Source: Nemertoderma westbladi (Eukaryota > Animalia > Xenacoelomorpha). From it: 64,000 nucleotides of DNA. Where the stretch lies: assembly GCA_032718475.1 (NCBI GenBank), contig JAUCBJ010001939.1, positions 1 through 64,000 on the forward strand, written 5' to 3'. The position numbers and the translations under genes were made by a program. Of the stretch, positions 1 to 26,012 are shown piece by piece. Each line of letters opens with the position of its first letter. Within the stretch, counting starts at the first letter, position 1. The notes below the pieces were generated by a model. The model saw only the letters and a list, made by a program, of their open reading frames with translations. It had not been told where the DNA came from and searched no databases.

Positions 1-2
1 AC

Positions 3-3000
3 GAATCCCGCGTTCAGGAATATACCAATAATGTGTCATCTAATGAGATGTATCCAGATGTGCCGAATTATTTAAATTATATGGGGTTATATGCTTCACG
101 TGCTTTTAACACGACGGCATCGGCTTTTATTGATATGTTTTATAAAGTGTGGTTAATTGCTTCGGTGATAATGGAACGCGATGATGCTAATTATACTCTA
201 CAAGAAGAATTCCATTTTACTTCTATCGGTACAGATAATTATATTGAAAATAGCCCGGATTTTGACGAATGGTACTACGCAGTCTTTTCCCATATCGGTG
301 AAAAAATATCACAATTTATTAGGCGGGGTAGCGGCTGGAAACTTGTAACTCTATCGCGCATCAAACTTACTATTGCGTCATACTTGCGATCGGCATATCG
401 TTTTGGACATAGCGGCGATGCCAACCAATCAATCCCAACGAAATTAAAAAATAAACATTGTGTAATAAATGTACCGTGTAATGAAGGTGAATGTTTTAAG
501 TGGGCGGTCCTGACAGCAAAATTTTCAAAACATATATCGGATGATCACACACTGCGCCATGTTTCACGCCAAAGTTCTTATAATCAGTATTTAGGGTTTT
601 TTAATTTAAGCGAATTAGACTCTACCCTATCATGGAAACTAAATATTCTAAAGTTTGAAAAAAATAATCCAAATTATTTAATAAATTTATTGTATTTTGA
701 TAGAAGTAGTGAAAAAATTTCCTTTCTACGACAACCAAGTGCTAAAAAAGCTGAAGGTAAAAGATTGCTAAATTTATTGCTTATTGAACGTCAAAATTTA
801 ACCTCAACAAATCACATCGTCGGGGTTTCTAACTTAAATAGATTATTTAATGGTCGTGGGGAAGGCAATAGCGAGTATCATTGTCATCGTTGTGAGCGGT
901 GTATTCGCGGTTTCTACAGTCCAAATGCGTTAGAACGCCATAGATTGTGGTGTTGGCAAGGTGGACGTCAAATAGAGGAGATGCCATCTAAACTGAATTT
1001 ACGCTTTACTAATTACTATAAGTCTGTGAGCACACCTTTCATAGTATATATGGATTTCGAAGTGGTACTAGCCCCAACAAATAATGTAAAAAAATATTAT
1101 ATAGCCGAACATCTCCCGTCGGCTGTTTCATATTTGATTGTCTCCAACGGTGAATTAATTAACCCCCCAAATTATTTTTTGTCTACATTTAGACAAAATA
1201 TCGATAATAACTCGGTACAGAATTTTATCGATAGTCTGGTTTTTGATTTATTTAAGTGTTATGAATGGTCTACCTTTAACACACACCACCCCAAACACCT
1301 GGATCACACACAATACCAAGCTTATATGCGTACCACAAATTGCTTTAATTGTAAATCATTTTTTCGGAAAGATATAAATCCAAGTGTGATGCATCACAAC
1401 CATTACAATGGGGCTTTCATTGGTGCGGCGTGTATTTCCTGTAATAAACAATTAAGCGTTAAACGTCACCTATTCCCAGTTGTCTGTCATAATTTTTTTT
1501 TTTATGATTCACATTTAATTTTACAAAAAGGGTTTGCCGGTAGTAAATATAAAAATTGGAACATTGAAACCATTGCAAAAAATACTGACTGATATATCTC
1601 ACTCCGTATCGATATTCCAACGTCAGAAGCACTTAGCGTGCTTGGTTATGCTATTCCAGAAAAGGACGTAAGAGGGCTCCCAACCAGCAAATCAATAACT
1701 ATACAGTTTATTGATTCATTCGCGTTTATGGGATTTTCCCTTTCTGCTTTGGCTGGGTTTTTGACAAAAGATGTGTCAGATTTAACAACCGTTATTCCGC
1801 ACACCGTGAAGCAAATGAGAAAATTATATCCAAATGTTACCGACGAAATTTTACGTCGTAAGTCAGTTTTTCCTTACGAATATGTCGATTCCTTAAGTAA
1901 ATTGGAGGATACTAAATTACCACATCCAAAAGAGTTTTACAGTGAATTAACATTATCATCTATTAGCCCTGAAGAATATACATTTGCACATCTTTCGTGG
2001 GAGCAATTTCAATGTAAGACACTTTTTGATTATTTGGAAGCTTACTTACATCTTGACGTTTTGCTGCTAGCCGATATTTTTGAAAATTTTCGCGCATATT
2101 GTACTAAACATTATTCGCTTGAGGTGTCGAACTATTACACGATGGCAGGGGTTAGTTGGGACGCGGCTTTGAGATTTTCCAAGTCACATATTCGTCTACT
2201 TGCAGACCATGAAATGTATTTAACATTCGAAAATTCCATTAGGGGTGGAGTTTCTTACACCAACCTTCATATGGCAAATGCGAATATACCAGGCACAGAA
2301 ACATACGACCCTAATAAACCTGAAGCTCATTTATATAATTTAGATTTCAACAGTTTATATAGCGGTTCTTTGTCGGAGAAACTTCCTTATTCTGACTTTG
2401 AATGGTTGGATGTTGATAGTGTCGATATCATGAGTCTGGAAATTGACGATATATATGGATACTTCGCAATTGTAGACCTCGAATACCCAATGACTATTCA
2501 TGATGCCACAGCTGAGCTTCCATTTGCACCGGAGCATATTAAACTCGATAGTAGGTATCTCAGCCCACACATGAAAAGTCTTTGGCGACATTATAATGGC
2601 GATAAAATTTTCAATAGCCCAGCAAAAAATTGATGTTAACCCAATTTGATAAGTATGAGTACGGTGTGCATCTAAAATTATTGCGCTTTTATATTCATCA
2701 TGGTATGCGTTTGATTAAAGTTCATAAACTTATTAGATTTAAGCAAGGTTACATTTTTAAGGATTTTATTGAATATAACACGCAGCAAAGAAAAATTGCG
2801 CGCAATGACTTTTATGATAAGTTTCACAAAGGAACAAATAACGCGCTTTTCGGGAAAAGCATGGAGAATATACGGGACCGTGTCTCATTTCGCTTATGTA
2901 ATTCAATCGAGAAATGTGACTTATTATTATCCAAGCCGAATCACGAAAATTTAATTATGTTCACTGATTCATTATCAGGTCACGTCCTATCTAAGACTGC

Positions 3001-3661
3001 GGTTTGTTTGCATAAACCTATTTTTTTAGGCCAAGCTGTGTTGGACTTGTCAAAGTTAGATTACTACACTTTTTTCTACGATAAGTTAAAGCCCATGGAA
3101 GCCGAATTAAATTGTAGTATAAATTTGTTAGGTGGGGACACGGATTCTTTTTTTTTACAGTGTGTTGGTTTATCCCAACACCAATTTTTATCTGCGTTAC
3201 AATCAAAAAAAGTTTTAGACTGTTCAAATTACCCTATTACGCATCCGTTGTATACAGTAGAACAGAAAGGGAAATATAGATATTTAAAGGATGAAGGGAA
3301 GTCTATCCCGTTTGACCAGGTTATTTTACTTAGACCAAAATGTTATAGCTTTCGTGGGGGGTCAGTTCCAAAACGTGTCGCTAAAGGCGTAGGAAAAATG
3401 GTTATAAAAAAGAAACTCTCCCACGAATCATATTTAAAAGTATATAACGAGGTTAGCGAGCATTACGAATACAGTCAAAGGTTTCAATCTAATTTACATA
3501 AAATATACACCGTTTCACAAAGAAAAAAATCGCTAACACTGTGGGAAGATAAAAGGTACTACACATCGACTAATGAAAGTCTACCTTACGGCCATTATAA
3601 AACACATTTGGATCGTAAAGCGCCAGCCCCTAAGCTTTATATGCCGCCCATTATAGAATAG
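3..3661 (+). pseudogene. polB: Protein-primed family B DNA polymerase (pPolB), disrupted; frame open past the left window edge
   Basis: ORFs 33-1592, 1638-2633 and 2630-3661 are one gene. It has an in-frame TGA at 1590-1592 (KNTD*YISL) and a 1-nt shift in an A6 run at 2624-2629. Motifs: DFE, HNFFFYDSH, YLHLDVLLL (exonuclease); DFNSLY, KGTNNALFGK, DTDS (polymerase); N-terminal CFKWAV...H and Zn-binding CxxC segments. Confidence 0.93.
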
Positions 3662-3670
3662 CAGATTGCG

Positions 3671-4231
3671 ATGTCTTTTAGTGTTGTCAACAGTAATATA
3701 AGTTTGAGGTTGGTTGATGGGCGCATATCATTCGATGTGCTGGCTAAACGAATTCGAAATGGAAAACTCATCTTAAAGCCTTTCCAATATATCGCCAAAA
3801 TTTGCGGATGGACGTGTCTCTTTTTCCCGAGCGGTAAGGTCACTGTACTCGGTAAATCACCTAAAATAAAAAAAATTATTAAGTATATATATAAGCATAC
3901 TGATTATAAACTAACTTTTATTTCAATCAATAGCCAAACTTATATTATTAACAATCTAGACATAGACTATAGCAAATTAATGAAAACGGTTGGGTTTCAT
4001 TTTTTAGATAATTATTATAATGTGGAGGTGAAATATGAGCCGGAGATATTTAATAATATTCTTGTGCAGTTTTATCGTCGGGGTAAAACTAGTTCTAATA
4101 TTATAACATTTTGCGTTTTTTACACACGAAATGTTGTGTGTATGGCAAGACCCGAGATATTTCGAGTATTTTTTCCAAAGTTTTTGAATTTTATTGGTAA
4201 TTTAGATAGTCATTTAGGTAGAAATATTTAA
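3671..4231 (+). CDS. TATA-box-binding protein (TBP)-like protein encoded by the Maverick
   Basis: 186 aa, the size of a TBP core. LAKRIRN..KPF ~ IALRARN..KRF; TCLFFPSGKVTVLG ~ TALIFSSGKMVCTG; YEPEIF ~ YEPELF; FCVFYTRNVVC ~ LLIFVSGKVVL. Confidence 0.8.
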   Translation: MSFSVVNSNISLRLVDGRISFDVLAKRIRNGKLILKPFQYIAKICGWTCLFFPSGKVTVLGKSPKIKKIIKYIYKHTDYKLTFISINSQTYIINNLDIDYSKLMKTVGFHFLDNYYNVEVKYEPEIFNNILVQFYRRGKTSSNIITFCVFYTRNVVCMARPEIFRVFFPKFLNFIGNLDSHLGRNI

Positions 4232-4675
4232 TATTTAATTTTTTCATTTCTGGCGCCAGTTTTAGGTTTGTCCAGTGGGATCTCGTTAGGTTTTTAAATA
4301 AACACAGATATTAACATTATTCGCATTATATATATATATATATATATAACGTGTTTTATCGGTAGTCTTAGGTTGTCAAGGGCGTCAATTTCATTTCTGA
4401 CGTCGGTTTTACATTTACATAAATCTAGTCTATCTGTCTATTTGTCGGTCTTTCTGTCCGTCAGTATGTCAAAATTAATTCATTGTTCGCGTTATATAAT
4501 GTATTTTATTAATTATTATTGATGTTAGGTTTAAAGAGTGACGGTTTCTATAATTGCTCGGTTTTATCGCGTGAAAAACCCCACCCACGCATATAATCGA
4601 TACTATTTATAACGGTGGTGGTGTTTTATTACTTACTATTATTGTTCTCGTTTATATAAGTTATTAATATATGTA

Positions 4676-5137
4676 ATGAAATCACTCAAAGCTTTAATTA
4701 AACAATTTGATGGGGATTTAAAGTTCTTATCTAACGCCCCCCTCAACCGTAGAAAAACCTTCTTACGCGTCGGTGGAACCAACGAACTTATAAGTTTTCT
4801 AATTAATATTATTCTAAATGTATTAAATGGTAACGTAAAAATTCCTGAGCAAACAATCGTGAGGTTAAAACGCCATAAAAAAACAATACGCGAGATCGCT
4901 AAAAAACCAAAAGCCAAGTATCCCATTCGAATTTATCGTAAACGATTGGTGCAAAGGGGTGGATTTATAAATCTACTAATCTCCGGTTTAATGAGTGGGC
5001 TTAACGCTTATCAGAAAATATCACCCATAATAACGGCTGTAAGAGGCAGAAAATTAGCCCAATCCCGCCGGGGGTATAGACCTACTACCTCTGGCACACG
5101 CGTCAACCGTCAAGTTTCTAGGTTTCCCATCTACTGA
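4676..5137 (+). CDS. Basic Maverick virion/core protein with adenain-type cleavage motif
   Basis: K/R-rich; ILNVLNGNVKI...RLKRHKKTIREIA...QRGGFINLL pattern recurrent in Maverick small proteins; a GG motif precedes a hydrophobic/amphipathic helix. Confidence 0.7.
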   Translation: MKSLKALIKQFDGDLKFLSNAPLNRRKTFLRVGGTNELISFLINIILNVLNGNVKIPEQTIVRLKRHKKTIREIAKKPKAKYPIRIYRKRLVQRGGFINLLISGLMSGLNAYQKISPIITAVRGRKLAQSRRGYRPTTSGTRVNRQVSRFPIY

Positions 5138-5154
5138 GTGGCTACCTATCAACA

Positions 5155-5623
5155 ATGTCCCGAGAGCCGACGATATCACGGGAACCAATCACATCATACG
5201 ACGCCTCTTTCAAGATGGGTTCGGCCATGATTATTGCGGGTCCAAGTTCTTCCGGAAAAACAGTGTTGGTATCAAAAATTGTAAAAAATAAAAATTTAGT
5301 TTTTGATATAACCCCGAAGCGTGTATTATTCTTTTATGGCGCCACCCCACCAGAATTCCCGGGTATAACACATCTATTCAAAGATAGACCTACCCAAAAA
5401 GAAGATCTACCCAAAAAATAGCAATTTTATTGTTCAAGCATATAGTGACGCCACACAAAAACCATTCACACACCTTCTCTTAGACTTTCATCAAAAAACG
5501 GATGATAGTATAAGAGTTAGGGGTGATATTTTCAACCCATTAGGGCAAACTGTTTATCAACCCACGAATATGAACTCTAACACACCTCACCAACGCCCCG
5601 AGGCTCAGTCTATACCGCAGTAG
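5155..5623 (+). pseudogene. A32/FtsK-like DNA packaging ATPase with internal deletion and frameshift
   Basis: Walker A GPSSSGKT in 5155-5421. After the A6 run at 5413-5418 another frame reads NSNFIVQAYSDATQKPFTHLLLDFHQKTDDSIRVRGDIF (typical Maverick ATPase C-terminus) to TAG 5621-5623. Walker B and the central region are absent. Confidence 0.85.
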
Positions 5624-5744
5624 CGACGCCGTGCTAAAACCATTTTCACACATTGTTTAGACTTTCACCAAAATTAGGTTATTATCGGTCCATGAACGTG
5701 AACTCTAGTATATAGTATTAATATATTAATAATGATATATAACG

Positions 5745-6205
5745 ATGAAAAATAACGAGATTAGCCTCGGAAATTTTAAGAAGTTGTATCTAGTTTCTAC
5801 TTTATTAACGGATACTTATAATAATAATAATAAGAAAAGCAATAATATAATACAACCGCTAGATGGTGTGACAATTTCATCCCAGAAAGCCAAACGATTG
5901 TTGAGTTATTTGATGCGATTCTCGCGAGACAGAGTACGGTGGAGCGATAATAATAAACTCTATATAGAAAATAAACTTATTCCCGGAGCAAATATTGATC
6001 ATTTGATTGAATTGCTGACTACAAAAAAAATAAGAAGAACACCGAAATAATTCCAGGACAAGCAACATTTTTGGGGTTATTAAAACGATTAAGGATACCA
6101 AAACGATTAATTGGTCGCGGTTGGTTGAAACGGCAAAGGGTCCGCGTGACCCCTTCCAACACAAAACGCGTCGACGCGTGGAAACAATACGTAGGACTAC
6201 AATAA
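5745..6205 (+). pseudogene. Conserved small Maverick protein, frameshifted in an A8 run
   Basis: KAKRLL...VRWSDNNKLYIENKLIPGANIDHLI. After a -1 shift at 6023-6030 it continues IIPGQATFLGLLKRLRIPKRLIG...WKQYVGLQ* (TAA 6203-6205), matching my recollection of this family's C-terminal pattern. Confidence 0.6.
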
Positions 6206-6329
6206 ATCGACGTGCGGAAACAAAGCGCGGGATAACATTAAAATAGTAGTAGTAGTATGTTTTTTGAACGTTTCATATTAAGTATTAACTGTCATTGCAA
6301 GTGTTTTCTTCCACGACACGACACAACCG

Positions 6330-7415
6330 ATGGGGAGAATCGTAGAAAATCGAACAAACAAACGACTGGGAAGAATATATTACGATGTTTCAAATGCTGC
6401 CGGTTTCGCGAGCGTAACCAAACTAGCGAAAGCCGCTAAAGTTACGAGAAATCGCGCAAAAGAATGGTTGAGCTCCCAACGAACGTATTCCCTACACGCG
6501 CCGGCTAGGCGCCATTACCCGACATCAAAAATCTTCACGAGCGGTATTGGCGATCTATACCAAGCGGATTTGTGCGATATGCAACCTTTTAGGGGTGAGA
6601 ATAATGGCTACGGTTACATACTTACTTGTATTGACTGTTTTAGTCGGAAGGCGTGGGCGTTGGGTCTAAAACGTAAAACAGGGGTCGAAATTAAAAGGGC
6701 CCTAGCCACGATATTTGAAGATAGAAAACCTAAACGGCTAGCGGTTGATCAAGGAACTGAGTTTGTTAATAAATTGGTGAAAGATTTCTTACTGAACAAT
6801 AATGTTCATTTTTATACTTTAGTTAGCCAATTTAAAGCTAGTATCTGTGAAAGGCTGAATCGCACCCTCAAATCTCGCATGTACAGAATTTTCACGAGGA
6901 AACAGAATAGAGAATGGATGGGTATATTGCCAAAAATATTGGTTGCATATAATAATTCAATACATAGAACCATTGGTATGGCGCCAAACTCTGTCAATAA
7001 AAAGAATGAAACTGACCTATTTTTAAAACTATATGGGAGTGTGGGTCATCCCAATAAAAGAAAACGTCGTGCGCAGCGTCGAGTTCATTTCAAGGTTGGT
7101 GATAAGGTGCGGCTGAGTTTAGCTAGAAAACCATTTGACAAAGGTTATACACCTAATTATACTGTAGAAATTTTCAAAATTTACAGAATAAGATTGGATC
7201 GAGAGCCGTACCCTATGTACGAAGTTGCGGACTCGAATGGGCGCGTTATAAAGGGGACATTTTATCGGCATGAAATCCAAAAGGTAATAGAACCATTTCA
7301 ATTCCTACCAATTGAAAAAATAATTAAAGAAAAAGTAAATAAAAGCGGCAAAAAGCAATATTTGGTTAAATTTGTTGGTTTTGCGGCACATCGGTGGGTT
7401 GATCACGTACAATAA
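6330..7415 (+). CDS. Retroviral-like (RVE) integrase with C-terminal chromodomain
   Basis: DDE triad YQADLCDM / AVDQGTEF / ICERLNRTLK; YNNSIHRTIGMAP; FKVGDKVR...FDKGYTPNYTVEIF; chromo-like IEKII...YLVKFVGF...WV. Confidence 0.96.
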   Translation: MGRIVENRTNKRLGRIYYDVSNAAGFASVTKLAKAAKVTRNRAKEWLSSQRTYSLHAPARRHYPTSKIFTSGIGDLYQADLCDMQPFRGENNGYGYILTCIDCFSRKAWALGLKRKTGVEIKRALATIFEDRKPKRLAVDQGTEFVNKLVKDFLLNNNVHFYTLVSQFKASICERLNRTLKSRMYRIFTRKQNREWMGILPKILVAYNNSIHRTIGMAPNSVNKKNETDLFLKLYGSVGHPNKRKRRAQRRVHFKVGDKVRLSLARKPFDKGYTPNYTVEIFKIYRIRLDREPYPMYEVADSNGRVIKGTFYRHEIQKVIEPFQFLPIEKIIKEKVNKSGKKQYLVKFVGFAAHRWVDHVQ

Positions 7416-7429
7416 TTAATTATATTATT

Positions 7430-8314
7430 ATGGATTACTTACATTTAACGTTGACTTCCAACGCCAGTCTAGATAAATATCCCGATAACACTCCCAGCGA
7501 TTTCACGATTGAGTTGTCCAAACCTATCCCCGTCAGCACAGATTGGGTCGTGGGTCTAAAGGAAATACAGTATGTGTCGACCTATAGAAATATTGAACAA
7601 AGATCTGGAATTAGAATTGGCGAATATATGTATGATGAGGATTTGGAATTTCATATAGCTCCATACAATCTTATAGAAATCGATTTCAATCTTGGGCTAT
7701 ATGCTTCTATTGAGTCAATTTTAAACCATATTAGTGTTTATTTGAAAAATCCCTCAATATCCCACCACGGTTTCAAAGATGTTAAGTTTAACTACCAAAA
7801 ACATACATCAAAAATTCGTCTACATTGTGAGAAAGGCCGCTATTTCCAATTCTATGGAGATATAATAAATATTTTCGGGTTATCGAGTTTAAAAAATAAT
7901 TTAATGGGTCTTGGGGCGCTTTGGGCAATACACTATAACAAAGATGATGGTTTATTGAACTTAGGCTGTAAAGATACAAACAAATTGGATGGGGTTGAAT
8001 TCCCTGAACCTTGTGATATAACGAGGGATAGACACACAATGTTTATATATACAGATATGATTGAATCTTCTCACGTAGGACATTCGATGGCGCCTCTTTT
8101 GCGGATAATCCCTTTGAAATGGGAACCATACTCATTCATCAACCTGGAATTCAAAAACACACATTACAAACAATTAAGAAATAAAAAAGTGCTCGACACA
8201 ATTAGTATAACGCTTCGCGACCATAAAGGAAAGCATATAGTCTTTCATGGAGGTAAAACAATTTTAGTTCTAGAACTCAAAAAACAACAACGGCGACAAA
8301 AACTACAAGAATGA
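7430..8314 (+). CDS. Minor capsid protein (penton) 1
   Basis: LTLTSNASLDKYPDNTPSDFTIEL..PI...WVVGLKEI; C-terminal MFIYTDMIE...VG...APLLRII...Y......I.I.LRD..G..I.F..G...LVL. Confidence 0.88.
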   Translation: MDYLHLTLTSNASLDKYPDNTPSDFTIELSKPIPVSTDWVVGLKEIQYVSTYRNIEQRSGIRIGEYMYDEDLEFHIAPYNLIEIDFNLGLYASIESILNHISVYLKNPSISHHGFKDVKFNYQKHTSKIRLHCEKGRYFQFYGDIINIFGLSSLKNNLMGLGALWAIHYNKDDGLLNLGCKDTNKLDGVEFPEPCDITRDRHTMFIYTDMIESSHVGHSMAPLLRIIPLKWEPYSFINLEFKNTHYKQLRNKKVLDTISITLRDHKGKHIVFHGGKTILVLELKKQQRRQKLQE

Positions 8315-9114
8315 ACAGTTATTACGTTGTACTACCCTCAAACGCAAACCCCATAGAATTCCCACATAATAGCGCCAGCGATTTCCAAACAAATTTGCAA
8401 ATTCCTTTACCTTTCGCTAAAGGGCAATGGTTAATAGGTTTAACCGGTATAACGTACGTATCTAGTATCAGGTATGACAATAGCGACATTTATATAAAGG
8501 CCATAAAAAATAAAAAAATGTTTACAAGAGATGTTACTCTCCCCGAAGGATCTTTCCTATCAGTGGAAAGGATCATTGAGTACTTCAACAAAAGCCTTAT
8601 TAAAGGCCAAATTAATATAATTGATAATACAGCACGCTCTGGTAATATAACCATACATTTTAAAGGTAAACAGTTGTCGATATTTGTCAGTAAACGTTTG
8701 GGTGGTTACCTAGGATTAACAGAACACGAGGTTGATGGCAAAGGTTTTATGTGTGTGCAAAATGCTGCGGGGGATTATCACTTGCTAAGGATTGATTCGC
8801 GGAATAATAAGTACGACTGCCATAAGCATCCTAATGCTGTCGAAATACTGGAACCCAACATAAATATACATATCAATTGCGTCGAACCTCAATTTGTAGA
8901 CAATAGCGAATACCCTCTGTTGCGTAGCATACCCATAGAAGGGGAATATGGGCAAATTATTAGTCGTGAAGTTGAGGAAGTCTACTATAAAAAAGTTAAT
9001 TCAACATCTAATTTACGTTATATACGAGTTCGATTGATTGGAGATTCCGGAAATTTGTTGCGCTTTCATTATGGAAATTCAATATTGACGCTTCATTTTA
9101 TACGAATTGATTGA
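8311..9114 (+). CDS. Minor capsid protein (penton) 2, divergent paralog
   Basis: VVLPSNANPIEFPHNSASDFQTNL..PL....WLIGLTGI; NCVEPQFV...PLLRSI...YYKKV...IRVRL...G..L.F..G...LTLHF. Its ATG overlaps the penton-1 TGA (ATGA). Confidence 0.85.
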   Translation: MNSYYVVLPSNANPIEFPHNSASDFQTNLQIPLPFAKGQWLIGLTGITYVSSIRYDNSDIYIKAIKNKKMFTRDVTLPEGSFLSVERIIEYFNKSLIKGQINIIDNTARSGNITIHFKGKQLSIFVSKRLGGYLGLTEHEVDGKGFMCVQNAAGDYHLLRIDSRNNKYDCHKHPNAVEILEPNINIHINCVEPQFVDNSEYPLLRSIPIEGEYGQIISREVEEVYYKKVNSTSNLRYIRVRLIGDSGNLLRFHYGNSILTLHFIRID

Positions 9115-9188
9115 GATAGTCACAATTTAATCGATGTAAATTATTTATTATTTATTATTATCTGATTATCTGAAGTTATAGCGACTAT

Positions 9189-9785
9189 ATGGATAAATTT
9201 CTAAGTCGCAGCCGTGGGCGTGATTATTACCCGACGCTGGAAAACCCGGGAATAATAGTAGATTTCCAATATTATACGCATCTTCCGCAGATCGACCAAC
9301 ACCCCGTTGCAACCATTTATTTTAAAGAGTTTGCGGCTTATAATACTACCATCAAATCATTAGAAAACGTATGGTTTATTAATGGTCCACCCGCAAAAAT
9401 TTTAAGTTTACGCGAATACGACCGTCTCACACAACTCGCCAATATTACGCATCACATTAATTTTGACTACGGATTTATGGACCAAAGCGCATTTAAAATA
9501 TACATACAGGAATGGTTACAAGAAAAAAAACGGTTGGGGTTTCAAATATTAATACGCGGAATACCGAAATTATTTATTTTAAAAAATGAATTTAATGTGA
9601 ATGGAACACTTCTAGAAACGTACGGCATAAACGAAAAATATGCCGATTATGACACCAAATGTCTTTTTCACGATTATTCAGCAATAACAAATTGTGCCTA
9701 CCATTCTGATAATAGTGATTCTTGTTTTAATTATTGTTCTGCGAAACTCGCGGTTGGTTATGGGAAATGGTTATCATCGAATTAA
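9189..9785 (+). CDS. Maverick accessory protein, probable degenerate DEDD/DnaQ-like exonuclease with Cys/His C-terminus
   Basis: IIVDFQYY...FKEFA...HHINFDYG...ILIRG..K...LETYG...CAYH...CSAK resembles a family seen in invertebrate Mavericks (from memory); acidic catalytic residues only partly kept. Confidence 0.45.
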   Translation: MDKFLSRSRGRDYYPTLENPGIIVDFQYYTHLPQIDQHPVATIYFKEFAAYNTTIKSLENVWFINGPPAKILSLREYDRLTQLANITHHINFDYGFMDQSAFKIYIQEWLQEKKRLGFQILIRGIPKLFILKNEFNVNGTLLETYGINEKYADYDTKCLFHDYSAITNCAYHSDNSDSCFNYCSAKLAVGYGKWLSSN

Positions 9786-9899
9786 TGTATATATAATTAA
9801 TTATTGTGTTATTATATGCTACTTATATTTGTTGATTACACATATACGTAAGTAGTAAAGAATTATTATTATATGTTATAATAAATACTCATAATAATA

Positions 9900-10427
9900 A
9901 TGTCAGATTCTGATTTGTTTAAATTATATAGCGCCCCACAAATCCAACTGGGAAGCGGGAATTATAGCGATATACCCGTTTTTAAGGGTGGAAGCATTCT
10001 CCCTGGGTTTGGCCCATCTACTGGTATATGGAATAATAAGAATAATAAATTCGGCCGGCGATACACCCAAAATCGTCAGCGTGGGCGCGGAATATTAACA
10101 ACTGGCCTAGGTATATTAGCGCGCAAGTTAGGGAGAAAGGTGCTAACTAAGGCACTCCCCAAAGCAGCGAAAGTAGCATGGAAATACATAATACCAGAAG
10201 GAAAACGTATTTTACGCAGTAAAGCAGATGATTTGATAAATAAAGTGGCCGAGCGGTTAGAACCTCATCCAAAGACACGCCAAATCGCCCAACGGGTATA
10301 CAATGAATTTACAAACCCGAAAAGTAAAAAAAAGAGGAGTGGGAAACGGCGACACCCAAGTGTGGGTATGAACGTTGGGCGGAAATGTAAAAAGCGAAAT
10401 AATAAATGTCGCGATATTTTTATGTAA
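9900..10427 (+). CDS. Basic core-like virion protein upstream of MCP
   Basis: QLGSG...PVFKG...QRGRGI..GLGILARKL plus K/R-rich tail; typical position immediately before the MCP. Confidence 0.7.
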   Translation: MSDSDLFKLYSAPQIQLGSGNYSDIPVFKGGSILPGFGPSTGIWNNKNNKFGRRYTQNRQRGRGILTTGLGILARKLGRKVLTKALPKAAKVAWKYIIPEGKRILRSKADDLINKVAERLEPHPKTRQIAQRVYNEFTNPKSKKKRSGKRRHPSVGMNVGRKCKKRNNKCRDIFM

Positions 10428-10436
10428 CTTAACAAA

Positions 10437-11687
10437 ATGAGTAAATTAGAATTATCATTATTCTCGAGTAAAACAAATCAGCGAGAATATACATCTTCAC
10501 ATTTTTTGGATATCTACCCGATTTCTACTCTTGACGCGAATGCCAGGCAAATAGAGTTCTTTATACCCCAGTCAAATGTTCTATATACTGATTTAAAGAA
10601 TTCGAAATTTCACATTAAATATAAAATTACATGGGATGGTAATAGGGCTAACGACGATACAACCCTCCACCATCTTAATTACCCGGGTGGGTCACTATTT
10701 GAAAATTGTTCGTTATATTTAAATGAAAAGCTAGTTGAAACCTCGAATGGGTTCTACGCCTATAAGTCTACGTTTCAGACATTACTGTTGACAGATGCTA
10801 ACGAAAAACGCAGTATTTTAAGAGCTGGTGGGTATGAAGATACTGATAATAATCTAGGTGGGGTACCTGTCGCTACTGAGAATGACGTTCGTGGGAATTA
10901 TGTTAAATTCGTTGTGGCCCCAATTTTTTTAGACCTGGCAAGCCAGGACAAATTACTGCCGCCGGGAATTAACATTCGACTTCGTATAGACCGAGTATCG
11001 AATAATTTTTTTTTGAAAGTTGAACCCCCCGCAGGATTGGTAAACCCAAGAGTTGAAATCATGAATATTAATTTAAAAATAAAACACCACAAGATTGATG
11101 CCGAGGTTATGCGTGCGCATTTGTTGGGGTCACAAAAAAATGACTTTATTTATAACTTGTTAAAACAAGAAGTGAAAACCTTCACTATTGGTGGCGGGCA
11201 GTCCAGTTATACAGAATCGAACATAATCCAAGGAAAATTACCTAAGTATATTTTGGTTGGAATGCTTACCAACGCCAGCTTCAACGGGGAATTAAGCAGT
11301 AATCCGCTACATTTTAACCATTTCGGTTTAAATTATGCCGAACTAAACATCGACTCCCGTATTATACACGGGTATCCATATCGCCCTAACTTTCTGGAAA
11401 ACAATTTTATGTTGGAATTCGAAAGTTTAATGAACGTGTTCAAGAGCTTGAGCGGCGTATTTTGCTCGCTAACACCAGAACGGTTTCGTACCCAATTTCC
11501 TTTGATCGTATTCGATCTTACTGCGGGAGGCGACCAAAGCCATGAAATTCAACCTAGTATTCATACAAGCGGGCATTTGATTCTGAAATTTAGTAATGCA
11601 CTAGATAACACTATTAACGTTATATTAATGGCAAGCTATGACGCTCTTCTATCTATTTCGGAAGCCAAGAAAATAATAACTGAATAA
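10437..11687 (+). CDS. Major capsid protein (double jelly-roll, hexon-like)
   Basis: 416 aa; SKLELSLF, IYPIS, IEFFIP...YTDL, SLF...LYLN, YAYKS, QDKLLPPG, GKLPKYILVGM...AFNG-like..NPLHFNHF, FDLT. Confidence 0.93.
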   Translation: MSKLELSLFSSKTNQREYTSSHFLDIYPISTLDANARQIEFFIPQSNVLYTDLKNSKFHIKYKITWDGNRANDDTTLHHLNYPGGSLFENCSLYLNEKLVETSNGFYAYKSTFQTLLLTDANEKRSILRAGGYEDTDNNLGGVPVATENDVRGNYVKFVVAPIFLDLASQDKLLPPGINIRLRIDRVSNNFFLKVEPPAGLVNPRVEIMNINLKIKHHKIDAEVMRAHLLGSQKNDFIYNLLKQEVKTFTIGGGQSSYTESNIIQGKLPKYILVGMLTNASFNGELSSNPLHFNHFGLNYAELNIDSRIIHGYPYRPNFLENNFMLEFESLMNVFKSLSGVFCSLTPERFRTQFPLIVFDLTAGGDQSHEIQPSIHTSGHLILKFSNALDNTINVILMASYDALLSISEAKKIITE

Positions 11688-11751
11688 ATAAAGATCTCGC
11701 ATAGTACAAAGTAAGCGAAGCCGCGCCGCCTGTGGATACGTGCACGCTAAG

Positions 11752-12195
11752 ATGTTGGACTCTATACAATTAGCGAAATTCCCGGTGGGGCCCGAATACA
11801 TTGGTGTTTACGCAATCGACCAATTACACCTAATACATGCAAAAAAAAAAAATAAGCATAAACAAAATTATTCATTTATTATTAATAATCAACGTATAGG
11901 CCTACCAGGGCAACACTGGTCTTGCGTACGCGTGGTTAAGAGAATTGCTTATTATTTAGATTCGTTTGGTAAAGCTCCTCCGCCAAAAATATCATATTGG
12001 TTGCATAAATATACCCAAAGGCATACTTGGAATCGTAAAATATTTCAAGCGCCGCAATCGACTCAGTGTGGTCTATTTTGTCTGTATTATTTAACCGAGG
12101 TGCCGAAAAATCTTGGAGCAATGAATATATTCACCTCTAATTTGCGGTACAATGATTTATTGTTATTACTGTGGACACTTTCATTAATAAAATAA
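11752..12195 (+). CDS. Adenain-like (C5) cysteine maturation protease
   Basis: YIGVYAID, FIIN...PGQHW (His), YLDSFG (Asp), FQ...STQCGLFCLYYL (Gln/Cys); first ATG at 11752. Confidence 0.92.
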   Translation: MLDSIQLAKFPVGPEYIGVYAIDQLHLIHAKKKNKHKQNYSFIINNQRIGLPGQHWSCVRVVKRIAYYLDSFGKAPPPKISYWLHKYTQRHTWNRKIFQAPQSTQCGLFCLYYLTEVPKNLGAMNIFTSNLRYNDLLLLLWTLSLIK

Positions 12196-13029: not shown

Positions 13030-13203
13030 TCCCTGCAGAACCAGGTAGAATTGTTGGTGGGGTAGTCCGCCCAACTTGTGCCTGCCCCCCAAAAATGGTG
13101 GGGGAAACAAGGACGCCACCTCCCACCCAACATTAATGTAAGTAATAATTTAATTTCAACAATTAATATAATAACAATAAATAATTGCCAAAATTCAACA
13201 ATA

Positions 13204-13800
13204 GTACCCACACGCTAAAGGCTTTGCTCACTCCGCGCCGCGCGGGTACCCATATTCTAAGGCTTCGTTCGATTCATGGCTCGACCTATTTTTTCATCAA
13301 ATCACTGTATAACAGAATTATTGGCAATTAAAACTTATGTTGGCATCGGACGGCGATAAGACAACTCACCGATAGCGCCTATATACCACCACCACCTACC
13401 GAAAATTAATGTAAGTAATAATTTCGAAAATTATTATAATAACAATAATCACTTCACGGCTCGCCCCACAACTAGTTGCTTAGCAATAACTATAGAATTG
13501 TAATATTGGTGGCTGTCGTTAGTTGAATACAATAACCTTACTTCGATGCTATCACTCACTTCATGGCTCGCCCCATAGGTAGAATCATCAAATTAAAATA
13601 ATATTATAAATACTATAACCTTATACTCACTTCGTGGCTCACCCCACAACTTGTTGCGTAGTGATAAGTATAAATACAATAACCTTACTTCGATGCTATC
13701 ACTCACTTCATGGCTCGCCCCATAGGTAGAATAATCAAATTAAAATAATATTATAAATACCTTATTCTCACTTCGCGGCTCGCCCCCACAACTTATTGCT
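13204..13800. repeat. Maverick subterminal repeat cluster with TCACTTCRYGGCTCRCCCC motif (A-B-A-B-A array plus two longer copies)
   Basis: Five motif copies between 13449 and 13790 in alternating units; two ~41-bp copies at 13204-13286. Confidence 0.85.
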
Positions 13801-14268
13801 TGACAATATTGGTAGCCACCGTTAGTCTGTGTTTATTCACCTTTTTTTAGTTGTTGCGTCTGTAATAGTCTATCATGTTAAAGACTTTATTAAATAAATT
13901 GGAGATGAGCTGTTGCAACTGTAATTAAAGGTGTAATATTATGGGTTTGTTCACTTTATAACAAACGTCTGCAACCCACTTACTATATTGGGTTTTACCT
14001 ATTGCGGTTCAAGGTCAAACGCCGACCGGTAGACACGAATTAATTAAATTACTTCCGTCTGTGGACTGGCCTTATACCGCATATGTCACATATACACAGT
14101 GGTGACATATGTTACATATGCACAATGGTAACCATAGTAACCATAGTAAGTGGGTGGGGCAACAATAGTAATTATAGTAAGTAGGCGGGGCAAGAGCCGT
14201 TCGGCAAATTCTTTAACATGGTAGACTATGGCAGACACTGTCTCAATCCAGGTGTTTAGCATACTACT

Positions 14269-18529: not shown

Positions 18530-21310
18530 ATCTGGTCTAGAACGCTGGGCTACAGAATGGCAACTTACTATAGCTGCTCACAAATGTCACGTGCTATATT
18601 TTGGTGCTAAGTGCTAACAACAACCGTACCCAGTAGGCCCTATTGCCTTTACAATAAGATTCTTAAAGAAAAAACTTATTGCAAAGACTTAGGCCTAGGT
18701 GTCACAATATCAAACAATTTAAAATTTGACAAGTACTGTCGTGAGAAAGTTGCTAAGGCCTACAAAATTGTGAATATGATTTCCCGCTGTTTTTACACAA
18801 AGAATAGACAAGCCATCATGCTTGTGCTTGCTTATAAATCGTACGTACGTCCCTTATTAGAATATTGTACTCCTGTCAGCCTGTATGGTCCCCATTCCTG
18901 CCCACGTCTATTGACCTAGTCTGCTAGTTGATAGTGTACAGCGGTACTTTACACGTAGACTTTACTTACGGTGCGGATTGTCACGTAATAATTACATCGA
19001 CCGTCTCGAAGTTGAAGTTGAAGTTTTTTATTGGACGCCAAATTATAGTAATAGTGCCTACTGTAAAACGAACACAAAGCATATTAAAATTACGAAACAT
19101 ATTAAAATTGACAGCATAAATAGACATACTTAATGATCGGCCCTGCATAACGTTCCAGCATTCTGACAACATTTACAACAAAATTAAAAATAACGTTAAC
19201 CTGTTAACACAGTAACACTATTTAAAAATAATATGGTGCACCTAGGATAGCCCCATGAGGTTATACCTCGTTTCCATGGGGGTCCTATTTAAAATTCATT
19301 CTATTAATTAGCGCTCATCAAATACGGCATGAGAGTAAAAATTTAATTAAATAAAATAAATAAAATAAAATATATGAAAAGTGCAATACAATGTAAGATT
19401 TAATTAAAATATCTAAAAATAATGATCTAGAAGCAGTAAAGAGACTGAGTTTATTTGTAAATATTTACTATGATTGTTAATTATCTAAAAGTTTTTAAAA
19501 AAAATAAATATAGTTTGATTTGTCGCCTGATAGTAGTTTAAAGAAGTAGTACTTTTTTACGCTATGTTTGAAGCTTTCTAGTGACACACTGTTTTTGATG
19601 TCATCAGGGAGCTTATTCCAGAGTTTTGGCGCCGCAAACGAGAAGCACTCTGTGCCTGATACGGTTTTACGGCGTGGGACGACGGCCCTGTGCGTGTTGC
19701 CTCTTAGATTGATGTTGGCCGTATTGAGTGTAACGAGGGATCTCAGGTAAGGCGGCGAAAGCTCTCGAGTAATGCGATACATATGGGTGACGATAGTTTG
19801 GTCGATACGGTAGTCTAAGGGTAGCCACGCCATCTCCGCGAAGTGCTGGACGGTTACGTGCTCTCGCCGGTGTAAACTCAGACAAAATCGCACGCACTTT
19901 CGTTGAAGTGCATGTAATTGGCTTTTTAGCTGTTTGCTGGCACTGGAATACCAGCATGATGCAACAAAGTCTAAGTGAGGTTGAATCAGGGTGTTACATA
20001 ACAACCGTTTGGTTTCATAATCAAGCAGGGCACTCTTACGATAAAGAAAACGAAGAGTCGAGTTGCCTCGTTTAATCACCTTCGATGCCATAGGATTTCC
20101 TGATAGAGACGATTCCAACATACAGCCAAGATATTTCACTGACGTTTGTTGTTCTATTTTTTTACTCGCACACTCGATGTCTAATGGTTCTGCAGAATTC
20201 ACGCGTTGGTGGGTCCCAAACAGAATACTCTTTGTTTTTCCAAAGTTTAGTGATAGTTTATTGTCGGTTGCCCACATGAATATATTATTTAGTTTCGATG
20301 AGAGAACCGCAGAAATAACATTTGCATTGTTATGGGAATAGAGAACATTGGCATCATCTGCGAGCTTCAGTGAGATGCAATTTGAGTCTATGACGATTCC
20401 AGTAGTGGATGTATGCTTAGTTATTGGAGGTCCAATGGATGTACATAGCGGCGGGCTGGGAAGAATTGCCAGATCCATGTCATTAACATATATGAGGAAC
20501 AGTAGCACTGCGAGAAGAGCACCTTGTGGAACGCCAGCCTTTATTAAAGCCTCTGCGGAGTACACATTCCCAATAAATACGCGCTGTTTTCGATCTGAGA
20601 GATAAGAACGGAACCAATTCACTGCTGAAGCGTCGAACCCAATTAACCGTAGTTTCTCTAATAGGATTGTATGATCGACCGTATCAAAGGCCTTTTGTAA
20701 GTCAATAAGTAGAACTCCCGTCACCAACCCGTTGTCGACTGCTTCTCTAATGTAATTGTTCATGAATAGTAGGCATGTCTCTACAGAATAGTTTTTGCGG
20801 AATCCTGATTGCAGTTGATCGAGGATATTGTGAAAAATCAAGAATTCGACAAACTGAATGAACACGACTCGTTCCAATACTTTCGATAAAATGACTAAGA
20901 GCGCCACAGGTCTGAAATTACCCTTTTGCAATCTGCAATCGCGTTTGAATAGTGGCTTTACTTTGGCAGTCTTATACGTAGTGGGAAAAGTTGATGATGA
21001 GATTGATAGGTTTACTAGATGGGTCACCGACTCAGCGATTACGGAGCTGCATTTCTCAACTTTCTTTCTTTGCAACCTTTAGACTGTTAGAATTGAGACG
21101 TATTATTTTTGACCTCAAAATGGTATTTTCCATTGAGCACAATTTCTGAATTTAGTCGATCTTAACTTCGATGATTTCTTCCACCGGCCAACCAGACCCG
21201 GGTTCAGAGGTCACAATCATAAACTGTTTGTAAATAGAACCAGACTGCCAGACTCAATCAATGTAAACACTATTTTGCTAACCGTGTTGTGCCCATCTGC
21301 AAACTCTGGC
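18530..21310 (+). mobile_element. Degenerate CR1-like LINE fragment split by a younger LINE insertion
   Basis: WATEWQL...KC..L; KDLG..ISNNLKF; AYKSYVRPLLEYC at 18540-19010. It resumes ~21063 with LELRRI.FDL...RGHNHKL...NRVV. Confidence 0.75.
19008..21062 (-). mobile_element. 5'-truncated L2/Crack-like LINE; RT ORF ~21060-19495
   Basis: FRPVALL...KVLE, QSGFR, DLQKAFDTVDH, GVPQG, LADD, KYLG; (CAACTT)n 3' tail at 19008-19024. Confidence 0.9.
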
Positions 21311-21646: not shown

Positions 21647-21802
21647 ATGGCGACGTCGAAACCGTCAGGGCCTAAACCTGCGGGGTCTAAACCAACCACA
21701 GATATCGAGCGGCGGAAGCAGATCAGTGTACGTCACGTTGCCGATCTGAGCAGTGTGACCAGCATTATCCAGGACTTTAATCGACACGTTCATTATACGG
21801 CT
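21647..21802 (+). CDS. PYG: Glycogen phosphorylase exon 1
   Basis: ATG...RRKQISVR (phospho-Ser site)...FNRHVHYTA, then GTAAGT donor. Confidence 0.92.
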
Positions 21803-22582
21803 GTAAGTACTGAAGTACACGGTACACCGGTACCTTTCATTGATTATGTTAATTGTAATCATGCTCATTAACAGATTAATGATACATGTCGTTAGGTAGT
21901 ACCGGTAGGCCTAATTATTTTCTTTCTTCAGCATATTTTTCAGGAAATCTTTCAGGCTTGTTATGCCAGTATGCTAGGATATGTCTTTTCTCTACCTGCC
22001 AGCTGCCACTATGACTGTATGATAGCCATGTGCGCGTGATCTTGCACAGTTCAGTAAAGACCTTCACTTTTGAATATAACAATTTATTCAATACCGGTAC
22101 TGCAATATGATACGCGATACGCGGGATCAGTACCGCAGTACCGGTACCGCAGTGGCGCATCAATCTCAACGTATCTGAATGTGTAGTCGCACCTGTACCG
22201 ATATCCGGTAGGCCTACTCCTTGTTTAAATTCCCTCTGTAATTGGTAAAGGCCCGGCCCATGGTAACCTCCCTTTAATGTGTTAAAGGTGACAAATGTAT
22301 ATAGCCAACGTGTATTTCAGTACGGTCTACCTTTTGTTCTTTCAGTCACTTTGATTAGGATTTAGGTTTTTTTTAATTAATTAGAGCTACGGTAGCTTGA
22401 CAGCACAAAATCATTATTAAAACAAAAATTTACCTCATGAATGTACCTATATACTTTATTAATAGCTTAATTTCGTTTGGATGTTCTTATTCCGGTCAAA
22501 TACGACAAATATAAGGTCGGGCCTCTATGTCTATACAATTATATATACAGTATATATTTTTTTTATCTCGCTTGTATTACAG

Positions 22583-22705
22583 ATAAAAGATCGTAATGTG
22601 GCCACTACGCGCGATTACTATAAGGCTCTGGGTCATTTAGTTCGCGATCGGTTGATCAGTCGATGGATAAGGACACAACAGTCGTATTACGAGAAAGACC
22701 CCAAG
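22583..22705 (+). CDS. PYG: Glycogen phosphorylase exon 2
   Basis: AG|[13 protein letters not shown]...[15 protein letters not shown]|GT. Confidence 0.93.
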
Positions 22706-23677
22706 GTTAATATTTAATGTAATTACAATTAATTAACATGCGATATATACGGGCCGGTCCCGGTACGCAGATACATAGTTTTTCCTGTTAACAGTTTCCT
22801 TTCCGCACAACCGAATTCTGTGGTCAGTCCAAGGGGCTCTTTTCGAGGGTATATACAGGAACTGTTTCTGCAGCTGCTAACTCTGCTTAGAGGCAGTATA
22901 TAGAAGGCACTAAGGCAGTATATATAGCCCTCGCAGTGATATGTTCTTATTATGATGCCTCAGAGTCGAGAACCTCGTACCTGTTGCTCAGCTTTAGTGT
23001 GAAGCTGGATCTCACACTTGACTGTTTACAACACAGAGGACCAGTCATGCCGTGTATAGAGGAAGATTTCTTAGATCTTTCTGCTAGCGCGGAGACTAAG
23101 TCGAGCTGTTACTGGCATTTAAGTTACCCAGGAATACAAATACTCAATAATATAAAGCGCAGGCAATAACATAATGAATACCCAAGAAACCAAATAACCA
23201 TAGCCTAACAGCAATAAATACCTCTTTAAATTACCTAATTATATTTTAACTATAAACGTTAAACCAGTTACTCTATAAAATATATTAATCGCAATATAAA
23301 TTCACCATATAAATCACCCACCCCGTGTCAGATAATAAACAGACTTTACGAAATGTTGCAGAATGAATAAAACCTTACTTTATGCGATTCGAGTTACGGG
23401 ACTTGAATTAGCGCTCTGGTGTACTTTATTCGCGAGAGTCGCTCTGAGCTGTTGTGATAATGCATTGCCTGTGATATAAATATTAGATATGAATGAAATG
23501 AATATATAAATATTGGCGTTCTGAAGTTCCATATTTTGCATCTGCTCTACGAGTTTATTTGCAAAAACTTCATGAACACTATAGGGAGATGTAGGTGTTG
23601 GATGGCATTCGTTATTAAAACGAATGAAAACGTTATTATTAGGAACGTTATTAATTTATATAATAAATAATTTGCAG

Positions 23678-23858
23678 AGGGTTTATTATCTGTCTCTCGA
23701 ATACTACATGGGAAGGACGTTAACCAACGCAATGCTCAACCTGGGGATACAAAATGAGTGTGATGATGCTATGTATGAGCTGGCGCTCGACATAGAAGAA
23801 CTGGAGGAGCAAGAGTCAGACGCTGGGCTGGGGAACGGTGGTCTAGGGAGGTTGGCTG
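23678..23858 (+). CDS. PYG: Glycogen phosphorylase exon 3
   Basis: AG|[15 protein letters not shown]...[13 protein letters not shown]|GTGAGT, phase 1. Confidence 0.95.
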
Positions 23859-25620
23859 GTGAGTATATATGGTAGGGGTGGGGAACGGTGGTCTAGGGAG
23901 GTTGGATGGTGAGTCTATAGGGTAGGGGGTGGGGAACGGTGGTCTAGGGAGGTTGGCTGGGGAGTCTATAGGGTAGGGGTGGGGAACGGTGGTCTAGGGA
24001 GGTTGGCTGGGGAGTCTATAGGGTAGGGGTGGGGAACGGTGGTCTAGGGAGGTTGGCTGGTGATTCTATAGGGTAGGGGTGGGGAACAGTGGTCTAGGGA
24101 GGTTGGCTGGGGAGTCTATAGGGTAGGGGTGGGGAACGGTGGTCTAGGGAGGTTGGCTGGGGATTCTATAGGGTAGGGGTGGGGAACGGTGGTCTAGGGA
24201 GGTTGGCTGGTGAGTCTATAGGGTAGGGGTGGGGAACGGTGGTCTAGGGAGGTTGGCAGGCGAGTCTATAGGGTAGGGGTGGGGAACGGTGGTCTATGGA
24301 GGTTGGCAGGTGAGTCTCTAGGGTAGGGGTGGGGAACGGTGGTCTAGGGAGGTTGGCTGGGGAGTCTATAGGGTAGGGGTGGGGAACGGTGGTCTAGGGA
24401 GGTTGGCTGGGGAGTCTATAGGGTAGGGGTGGGGAACGGTGGTCTAGGGAGGTTGGCAGGCGAGTCTATAGGGTAGGGGTGGGGAACGGTGTCTATGGAG
24501 GTTGGCAGGTGAGTCTATAGGGTAGGGGTGGGGAACGGTGGTCTAGGGAGGTTGGCTGGGGAGTCTATAGGGTAGGGGTGGGGAACGGTGGTCTAGGGAG
24601 GTTGGCTGGGGAGTCTATAGGGTAGGGGTGGGGAACGGTGGTCTAGGGAGGTTGGCTGGGGAGTCTATAGGGTAGGGGCGGGGAATGGTGGTCTAGGGTG
24701 GTTGGGTGGGGAACGGTGGTCTAGGGAGGTTGGCTGGGGAGTCTATAGGGTAGGGGTGGGGAACGGTGGTCTAGGGAGGTTGGCTGGGGAGTCTATAGGG
24801 TAGGGGTGGGGAACGGTGGTCTAGGGAGGTTGGCAGGTGAGTCTATAGGGTAGGGGTGGGGAACGGTGGCCTAGGGAGGTTGGCTGGGGATTCCATAGGG
24901 TAGGGGTGGGGAACTGTGGTCTAGGGAGGTTGGCAGGTGAGTCTATAGGGTAGGGGTGGGGAACGGTGGTCTAGGGAGGTTGGCAGGTGAGTCTATAGGG
25001 TAGGGGTGGGGAACGGTGGTCTAGGGGGGTTGGCAGGTGAGTCTATAGGGTAGGGGTGGGGAACGGTGGTCTAGGGTGATTGGCTAAAAGTAAAAAAAGT
25101 AAATTTTCTTCGGCCGCTTGGCCAGGGATTACGCACAAAGTCTGACGACTTATTTCCAGTGCGGTCCCCCCAGAACTTTACTCCCCAGAGGAAACTCTAG
25201 TACTCATTTAGCTACCACTTAAGGATGCAAGGCAGAGATGCGCCCAGGCTGGTCCCTTTAAAGCATTCGTGCCGAAACGAAAACTGCCCTGGCCCATGTG
25301 AGGATCGAAACCACGACCTACAGGAGATGTGAATTCAATGCAACCACTACACCAAGGTGGAACCTTGGCTGGGGAGTCTATAGAGTCGGGGTGGTGAACG
25401 GTGGTCTAGGGAAGTTGGCAAGTGAGTCTATAGAGTAGGGGTGGGGAACGGTGGTCTAGGGAAGTTGGCAAGTGAGTCTATAGAATAGGGGTGGGGAACG
25501 GTGGTCTAGGGAAGTTGGCAAGTGAGTCTATAGAATAGGGGTGGGGAACGGTGGTCTAGGGAAGTTGGCAAGTGAGTCTATAGAGTAGGGGTGGGGAACG
25601 GTGGTCTATGGAGGTTGGGT
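23829..25620 (+). repeat. G-rich 50-bp minisatellite derived from exon 3 end plus splice donor (~30 copies)
   Basis: Unit GGGGAACGGTGGTCTAGGGAGGTTGGCTGG(T/G)GAGTCTATAGGGTAGGGGT; interrupted by a SINE. Confidence 0.97.
25086..25364 (-). mobile_element. tRNA-derived SINE, near full length, with TTGGCT target-site duplication
   Basis: Minus strand: A-box TGGTGTAGTGG, B-box-like GTTTCGATCC, T-rich (TTTAC) tail; TTGGCT on both flanks. Confidence 0.82.
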
Positions 25621-25663
25621 TTTAGATGCAGGTAACAGTATTTCGCCGTTTGTTTCTTCTCAG

Positions 25664-25899
25664 CGTGTTTCTTGGATTCCATGGCAACCCTTGGTTTATC
25701 AGCTGTTGGCTATGGGATTCTCTACGACTACGGTATATTCACGCAGAAGATCGATGACGGTTGGCAGGTGGAGGAGCCCGATGATTGGCTTCGTTTCGGT
25801 AACATTTGGCAGAAGGACCGGCCCGAGTACCAGATACCCATCAACTTCTACGGACGTGTCGACGAATCGTCAGGGAAACCAAAATGGGTGGACACTAAG
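25664..25899 (+). CDS. PYG: Glycogen phosphorylase exon 4
   Basis: AG|[38 protein letters not shown]...WVDTK|GT. Confidence 0.95.
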
Positions 25900-26012
25900 G
25901 TTACAACCTTTCCCTTTATGCTAATTAAGTTAAGCTATTTGCTTACAAATATTTGAAACTCCAAAGAGACATAATGCCCAGATCCACATTACCGTTCGTT
26001 CATCCTTTGCAG

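Follow-up and report, generated by a model that had tools for sequence, protein, structure and literature searches.

A Maverick/Polinton element of Nemertoderma westbladi encodes a divergent homolog of the TATA-binding protein

The Maverick/Polinton element considered here encodes its own divergent TATA-binding protein (TBP), as supported by profile scores, protein embeddings, a structural model, a phylogenetic tree and gene context. It lies at the start of the window, by which we mean the whole analysed stretch of 64,000 nucleotides from a contig of Nemertoderma westbladi. The gene is an ORF of 186 amino acids at 3671-4231 on the forward strand. As the initial annotation had it, the ORF is intact, without a stop, and begins 9 bp after polB: the polB frame ends at 3661, with 9 nt between. 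Judged from its sequence, the product is confirmed as a true, very divergent TBP homolog.

The window starts inside the element, and all genes behind the TBP-like ORF are on the forward strand. The features are as follows (coordinates, strand, description and basis).

1..3661, +, polB, protein-primed type B, beginning before the window (DNA_pol_B_2, Pfam E 4e-11)
3671..4231, +, TBP-like ORF (P0001), 186 aa (open frame, homology)
4232..4675, no strand, AT-rich gap of 444 nt after the TBP gene (composition, repeats)
4676..5137, +, basic 153-aa ORF (36% over 83 aa to L059)
5155..5421, +, packaging-ATPase-like gene (weak Pfam match; frame interrupted near 5420 here)
5745..6050, +, 101-aa late-block ORF with no assigned function (frame apparently disrupted close to its end here)
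6330..7415, +, retroviral-type integrase (rve, E 1e-10; chromodomain match weak)
7430..9114, +, two paralogous ORFs of 294 and 267 aa, 24% identical (pairwise comparison)
9189..10427, +, two late-block ORFs, one of 198 aa (weak Maelstrom match, E 0.039), the other basic, 175 aa (Pfam)
10437..11687, +, 416-aa ORF (homologous to a large late-block gene in 9 related loci)
11752..12195, +, cysteine-protease-like ORF (Josephin, E 2.6e-4, a weak Pfam match)
13116..14023, no strand, right end of the element, rich in repeats (a pair of 36 nt and a duplication of 147 nt; exact end approximate)

Both Maverick hallmarks, protein-primed polB and a retroviral-type integrase, are present according to Pfam. 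In this copy polB is broken by an in-frame stop near 1590 and a frame break near 2630. The gap behind the TBP gene includes a (TA)n stretch (4327-4348) and two copies of a 28-nt repeat (4242, 4389), and the 153-aa ORF that follows is homologous to a small ATPase-adjacent gene of L059, a TBP-bearing relative. The 416-aa ORF is likely the major capsid protein, named by position, size and homology to the related loci. The tandem paralogues are likely the minor capsid (penton) genes, on position; their ESM look-alikes fall in unnamed viral clusters. The part of the element inside the window showed no gene for an RNA polymerase. Queries with the capsid and polB proteins against viral contigs retrieved no relatives.

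Beyond the element, the reverse strand carries a 422-aa reverse transcriptase ORF (19495-20763; RVT_1, E 3e-18), probably from a truncated non-LTR retroelement. It is followed on the forward strand (21647-23875) by exons of a glycogen phosphorylase gene of the host, the frame at 23624 being closest to the animal liver and brain forms; the presence of these exons downstream of the element points to an animal-type host genome. Large tandem arrays were observed within 23825-38859, with units of 50 nt (23825-25618), 44 nt (about 174 copies, 27444-34750), 30 nt (35045-36299) and 43 nt (38147-38859).

The relationship to TBP proposed in the initial annotation holds: profile scores are above chance, ESM Atlas matches are dominated by TBPs, and a TBP is the best match of the structural model. 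A profile of 49 Maverick-borne TBPs gave 38.1 bits with the ORF and a profile of 41 cellular-type TBPs gave 19.9 bits, the query being excluded from both; the corresponding shuffle maxima, 9.8 and 6.4, are the highest among the scored ones of 2000 shuffles. When the window was cut into 1066 six-frame pieces, the ORF was the sole match. The first profile, 49 TBPs gathered by a short motif and a profile search without the query but with one family member, P0046, scored 26.4 bits, with maxima of 9.4 and 13.7 among the scored ones of 2000 shuffles and 2000 block shuffles. Alignment of the ORF with the Maverick-borne TBP family by hhalign has a probability of 96.6. The match to the Pfam TBP family (PF00352) has E 0.0014 and a score of 18.8, below the gathering cut-off of 22.9. 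TBP accounts for 28 of 30 ESM Atlas matches (best score 0.95, recognition low). The TBP core occupies the whole 186 aa.

The single protein used as a query found no relative among PDB sequences and none among the 80 candidates of a word-seeded protein search; no locus was listed for it in viral contigs, and its one match among 1.84 billion representatives was a 2465-aa protein without an aligned stretch. BLAST detected no repeat shared by the two halves. A PDB search with an alignment was set aside as circular, three of the four rows of that alignment (A1) being TBPs.

The AlphaFold2 model made with a 71-row alignment is a predicted two-lobed saddle with pLDDT 87.9. Among 48,161 chains the top five matches are all TBPs (Z 9.7-11.8, about 165 residues), and the next fold has Z 7.3. 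Foldseek also lists TBPs first (E 2.6e-8, TM about 0.56). The fit is loose, with TM about 0.55-0.6 and rmsd about 4-5 A. Thus the TBP fold is the best match of the alignment-guided model, in line with the structural check that had been suggested. However, since TBPs made up the alignment behind the model, this result is partly circular, and the main weight lies with the profile tests. The single-sequence model (pLDDT 35.5, no Foldseek match at E <=0.001) is uninformative in either direction.

The initial annotation placed TBP outside the set of core Maverick genes. The gene is not unique to this element, and a widespread family of Maverick TBPs was found. P0046, a nearer relative of the ORF (28% over 125 aa), was used as a seed and gave 67 matches; the family loci are the best 80 of 110 confirmed metagenomic matches. 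Two candidates, L005 and L006, were rejected as chance matches in phage DNA. At least one core gene of the window's element (polB, ATPase, integrase, capsid, protease) has a counterpart in 34 of the 80 loci, among them 12 of 16 loci longer than 5 kb and all 7 longer than 8 kb. The ORF is among the most divergent members of the family, its best identity to any other being 31%.

The TBP-bearing relatives also contain a parvovirus-type phospholipase A2-like gene (L008:3994-4398) and a KilA-N gene (L018:7151-8011). In L081, L084 and L086 the TBP gene is on the strand opposite to the late block, the upstream words are TTAAGC or TATGCA, and the TBPs are nearer to cellular ones at N159, V161 and T215. 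A 566-aa giant-virus protein, encoded in L001:869-2569 and L004:7584-9284, carries a TBP-like domain at its N terminus, followed by a long basic tail.

Positions facing DNA and TFIIB were compared in columns of MAFFT global alignments comprising 71 family rows, left after 8 of 79 loci, being partial or frame-broken, had been dropped; L078 gave no profile match. Yeast numbering follows Table 1 of PMC12529657, as far as it goes. The initial annotation had aligned all four phenylalanines that intercalate into DNA. Three of them stand, F52, F127 and F150, corresponding to F116, F190 and F207, and they are present both in the ORF and in 71/71 family rows. The first does not: the F99 column contains proline, P37 in the ORF, as it does in 70 of 71 family rows. 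The residue previously taken for it, F38 of the KPF triplet, sits one column further on in a variable position, with tyrosine in most sibling contigs. A local profile alignment pairs F38 with F99 only by means of a three-residue gap, and thus the P37 register is likely but not certain.

The rest of the DNA face is changed as well. From the canonical set of two asparagines and hydrophobic residues (N69, N159, V71, V122, T124, P191, L205) the ORF has retained N69 alone, as N7. The second asparagine is T90, and the other positions read N9 (V71), T58 (V122), L60 (T124), N128 (P191) and C148 (L205). Some of these changes are shared with the family, which has Asn at V71 in 63, Gln at A101 in 64 and Ser/Thr at N159 in 66 of 71 rows; the ORF carries all three, and it contains the family signature N-x-N, K/R-P-x-Q, Q-S/T. 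The lysines K43 and K56 of the DNA face are retained. In the second lobe, P191, G210, K211 and G216 are replaced by N128, R153, N154 and A159, whereas 60, 69, 56 and 70 of 71 family rows retain them. Such a loss of residues conserved both in TBPs and in the family means that DNA binding by the ORF product may be weak or different.

The acidic stirrup is present at 122-127 (E123, E125, I126). Two stirrup glutamates, found in 67/71 and 71/71 family rows and both present in the ORF, are presumably E186 and E188, counting from F190. PMC12529657 names E184 and E188 as acidic stirrup residues critical for TFIIB. Thus the predicted TFIIB-binding stirrup is conserved in the ORF. Like its counterpart in cellular TBP, the helix at 66-77 is basic; in the lineage that uses the word ATAAAC (see below) it is acidic.

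The TATA-like tracts noted in the initial annotation are present at the six places named there; however, they are no commoner than chance. In 1688 intergenic bases (67.5% AT) there are 6 TATAWAW clusters on the forward and 8 on the reverse strand, with 6.3 +/- 2.2 expected (500 dinucleotide shuffles, p 0.61), and the tract at 4328-4348 is a (TA)n microsatellite.

Conserved upstream words were observed in the relatives. Pooled by group, ATAAAC precedes 75/134, 17/56 and 9/18 ORFs in three groups, and TATAAA, TTAAGC and TATGCA precede 5/8, 8/17 and 8/20 ORFs in three more; since the pooled loci are kin, these counts represent few independent cases. No word was found in two of the eight groups, E and F, which have few ORFs. 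The words are situated mostly 30-60 nt before the ATG. When relatives were considered singly, 6 of 9 passed correction in the 100 nt upstream, and an exact hexamer passed in 5/5 long relatives at 25-65 nt upstream (FWER <=0.025). The word varies with the DNA-facing residues: four groups with R122/M124/N205 have ATAAAC or TATAAA, and two groups with Q122/L124 have TTAAGC and TATGCA. The comparison covers TBP-bearing Mavericks only, and thus the reader of these words could also be the host TBP.

In the window's element no exact hexamer passed correction in any form of the test, the best FWER being 0.31 at 25-65 nt. TATAWAW, TATTAA/TATTWAA and ATAAAC (12 occurrences on each strand) were rejected as its word; a sigma-70 promoter scan does not apply to animal DNA. 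The following candidate was noted post hoc.

3615..11716, +, candidate word GTAA(A/G), 41-58 nt before 6 of 12 start codons

The six genes are the TBP gene and those at 8311, 9189, 9900, 10437 and 11752. The nominal p is 5e-5 to 6e-4, the FWER is 0.29-0.32, and there is no strand bias (35 against 36). The degenerate-word test also misses the true words of the relatives (FWER 0.05-0.36), and thus GTAA(A/G) remains a candidate promoter word of this element despite being post hoc and non-significant.

On balance, we lean towards the ORF being the element's own promoter factor, recruiting host TFIIB and RNA polymerase II. To our knowledge, Mavericks have no RNA polymerase of their own. Redirection of the host polymerase, also proposed in the initial annotation, is the most likely role of the protein, the support coming from the kept stirrup and the relatives' words rather than from the TATA tracts. 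The TBP-like protein would be made early, together with polB. With its three phenylalanines it would straddle and bend AT-rich DNA upstream of the element's genes, and the stirrup would then hand over to host TFIIB and hence to RNA polymerase II, activating the packaging, integrase and capsid block. As its gene follows polB directly, it would be an early product switching on the late block. DNA binding, TFIIB recruitment and late-block activation are here ascribed to the protein by analogy with TBP biology, the herpesvirus precedent and the relatives' words. The word it would read is not ATAAAC, which most relatives use, and may be loose or degenerate. A wider proposal, which we make tentatively and consider rather doubtful, is that Mavericks carry an old family of mini-TBPs whose DNA faces have co-evolved with lineage-private words, the protein described here being a fourth type that reads GTAA(A/G).

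Another possibility, in our opinion unlikely, though a TBP decoy was also raised in the initial annotation, is that the protein is a decoy or damper: having kept the surfaces gripped by host partners but ceased to read a promoter word, it would sequester TFIIB or regulators of TBP, or occupy TATA boxes, and so lower host or antiviral transcription. The stirrup is indeed its best-kept motif while four nearly fixed residues of the second lobe have changed; the basic helix 66-77 resembles that of cellular TBP, and no promoter word was found in this element. However, the three phenylalanines, N7, K43 and K56 on the DNA face would be needless in a pure protein decoy, and the relatives do have promoter words.

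The position of the gene could also suggest a DNA-bending helper in replication, integration or packaging, acting at the termini or at the gap and having no role in transcription. Such a protein would fit the distance of 9 nt from polB, a link kept in a diverged sibling (see below), the AT-rich and repetitive gap and right end, and again the missing promoter word. However, close linkage to polB is not a feature of the family. The expected homologs in other Mavericks were indeed found, but their TBP gene heads the ATPase block or is situated elsewhere, not tight to polB; in L008 the order is polB...TBP-ATPase-integrase-capsid, as in the window. Besides, nearly all family rows have the TFIIB stirrup. 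We consider a purely architectural role quite improbable.

Copies of the element are numerous in the host. Four sequencing runs from three studies, one possibly the source of the window, yielded 4900, 3557, 1351 and 108 element contigs; the family is very abundant and of recent spread. In the three deep runs most contigs are more than 95% alike, and a more diverged group is below 90%. Most contigs differ from the window at the polB break sites, and thus the breaks look particular to the window's copy. For the ORF, 9 differences are listed across 327 contigs, 5 of them silent, with no listed indel; nine differences are too few to show selection on the ORF. At the level of separate pieces, one diverged contig has three gap letters, and one low-depth contig has a one-letter gap. 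A 711-nt contig of run X3 (two alignment records taken as one contig by length, depth and coordinates) matches polB 3183-3603 at 86% and the ORF 3671-3844 at 82%, gapless and with nearly the same spacing, the likeness picking up again at the ATG of the ORF. Decay in sibling copies, which would have spoken against the initial annotation, was thus not observed: the ORF is retained, in the diverged sibling next to polB. This retention makes the ORF a stable part of the element family.

These data bear on a further alternative, to which we give little credence: the ORF may be a decaying family member under relaxed selection, the element relying on host TBP and its AT-rich gaps. The very long branch in the trees, the loss of family-fixed residues and the missing private word agree with decay. 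However, the TBP frame is open although polB and the ATPase are broken in the same copy; no indel is listed in the 327 contigs, and the diverged siblings have no frame-breaking gaps except for the one low-depth contig. The polB, integrase and capsid proteins of the element are likewise distant from their relatives.

The phylogenetic check places the ORF among Maverick-borne TBPs and apart from animal TBPs, the host's own TBP being outside the tree. In a careful tree of 25 rows, including 12 of 79 family loci, it is on the Maverick side of a branch with support 98/92, and the AU test rejects its grouping with four animal TBPs (p 0.028). The quick tree (67 rows, 33 of 79 loci) has the same split between Maverick and cellular TBPs; the giant-virus TBPs sampled group with the cellular ones. 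The branch of the ORF is very long, 3.3-4.9 changes per column, and its place shifts between trees, and thus we claim membership but no sister group. Indeed, L081/L084/L086 appeared as the sister group in the quick tree only, in disagreement with the careful tree. Trees of the integrase, capsid and polB show different neighbours for different genes, and all three proteins are distant from all relatives. Recent capture of a host TBP or TRF gene followed by drift is hardly credible: although the host's own TBP genes lie outside the comparison, the ORF has no intron, no N-terminal tail and the Maverick signature residues, and it falls on the Maverick side of the supported branch, the animal-TBP clade being rejected.

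With the reading as a promoter factor retained, the protein can be compared with known systems. Cellular and archaeal TBPs (PF00352; 1qne, 7o4i_O, 5fur_A, 1mp9) have the same predicted saddle, the three phenylalanines, the first asparagine, the acidic stirrup and the SGK turn of the first lobe. The differences are identity of about 18-22%, proline at the first phenylalanine site, a polar DNA face, changed equivalents of P191/G210/K211/G216, the absence of an N-terminal tail, and coding by a mobile element.

The late TBP mimic of beta- and gamma-herpesviruses, ORF24 of KSHV, likewise combines a viral TBP fold with a DNA face of greater polarity and reads TATTWAA late promoters (PMC12529657); it serves as a model for a private late-gene promoter. 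ORF24 as described there is a multidomain protein of 752 aa that binds RNA polymerase II directly, has five partners and four phenylalanines, and is devoid of the acidic TFIIB residues. The Maverick protein, in contrast, is a bare core with three phenylalanines and the acidic stirrup kept, and it has neither the Pol II-binding N-terminal domain nor the extra C-terminal DNA-binding domain of the ORF24 type. Giant viruses (BFVD matches) and mirusviruses (PMC10132985) also encode TBP folds, but their genomes are large, and mirusviruses have an RNA polymerase of their own.

A TBP-like gene has already been annotated in a Polinton-related midsize DNA virus. The abbreviation "TBP" occurs in the legend to Fig. 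5 on MELD viruses with adintovirus-like PolB (Starrett et al., PMC8502044; bioRxiv 10.1101/697771); as far as the available text goes, it is a legend abbreviation, in the section on non-animal data sets, that does not specify the element bearing the gene. The text passages of PMC8502044 contain no analysis of a TBP family, its residues or promoters, and one supplement has no match to TBP or TATA. We found no paper on the Maverick TBP family or its promoters in a search that most subscription literature and Repbase lie outside, and the family is apparently wide but barely described.

Engineered TBPm3 (I194F, V203T, L205V) binds TGTA (PMC1636458). The ORF has threonine at 203 and the small cysteine at 205, and its candidate word is GTAA(A/G); however, position 194 is leucine rather than phenylalanine. 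As threonine at 203 is also found in an ordinary plant TBP (P0004) and in the TBP of a giant virus (L003), the resemblance is partial and unspecific, and we treat it as a lead only.

A self-encoded TBP offers a direct and testable answer to the question of how Maverick capsid genes are timed, and such a protein supports a true viral early-to-late programme in Mavericks. The ORF is highly divergent and its promoter word is missing or loose, and thus it is a good test of the promoter-factor model. Few eukaryotic proteins are as conserved as TBP. A family with proline in place of one intercalating phenylalanine, a rewired DNA face and a kept stirrup would indicate the extent to which TATA recognition can be altered, and it could supply orthogonal promoter tools. 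If the proposed co-evolution with the lineage-private words (ATAAAC, TTAAGC, TATGCA) is real, the family would constitute a natural set of orthogonal TBP-promoter pairs plugging into host TFIIB, and a reader of GTAA(A/G) would be a natural equivalent of TBPm3, engineered to read TGTA.
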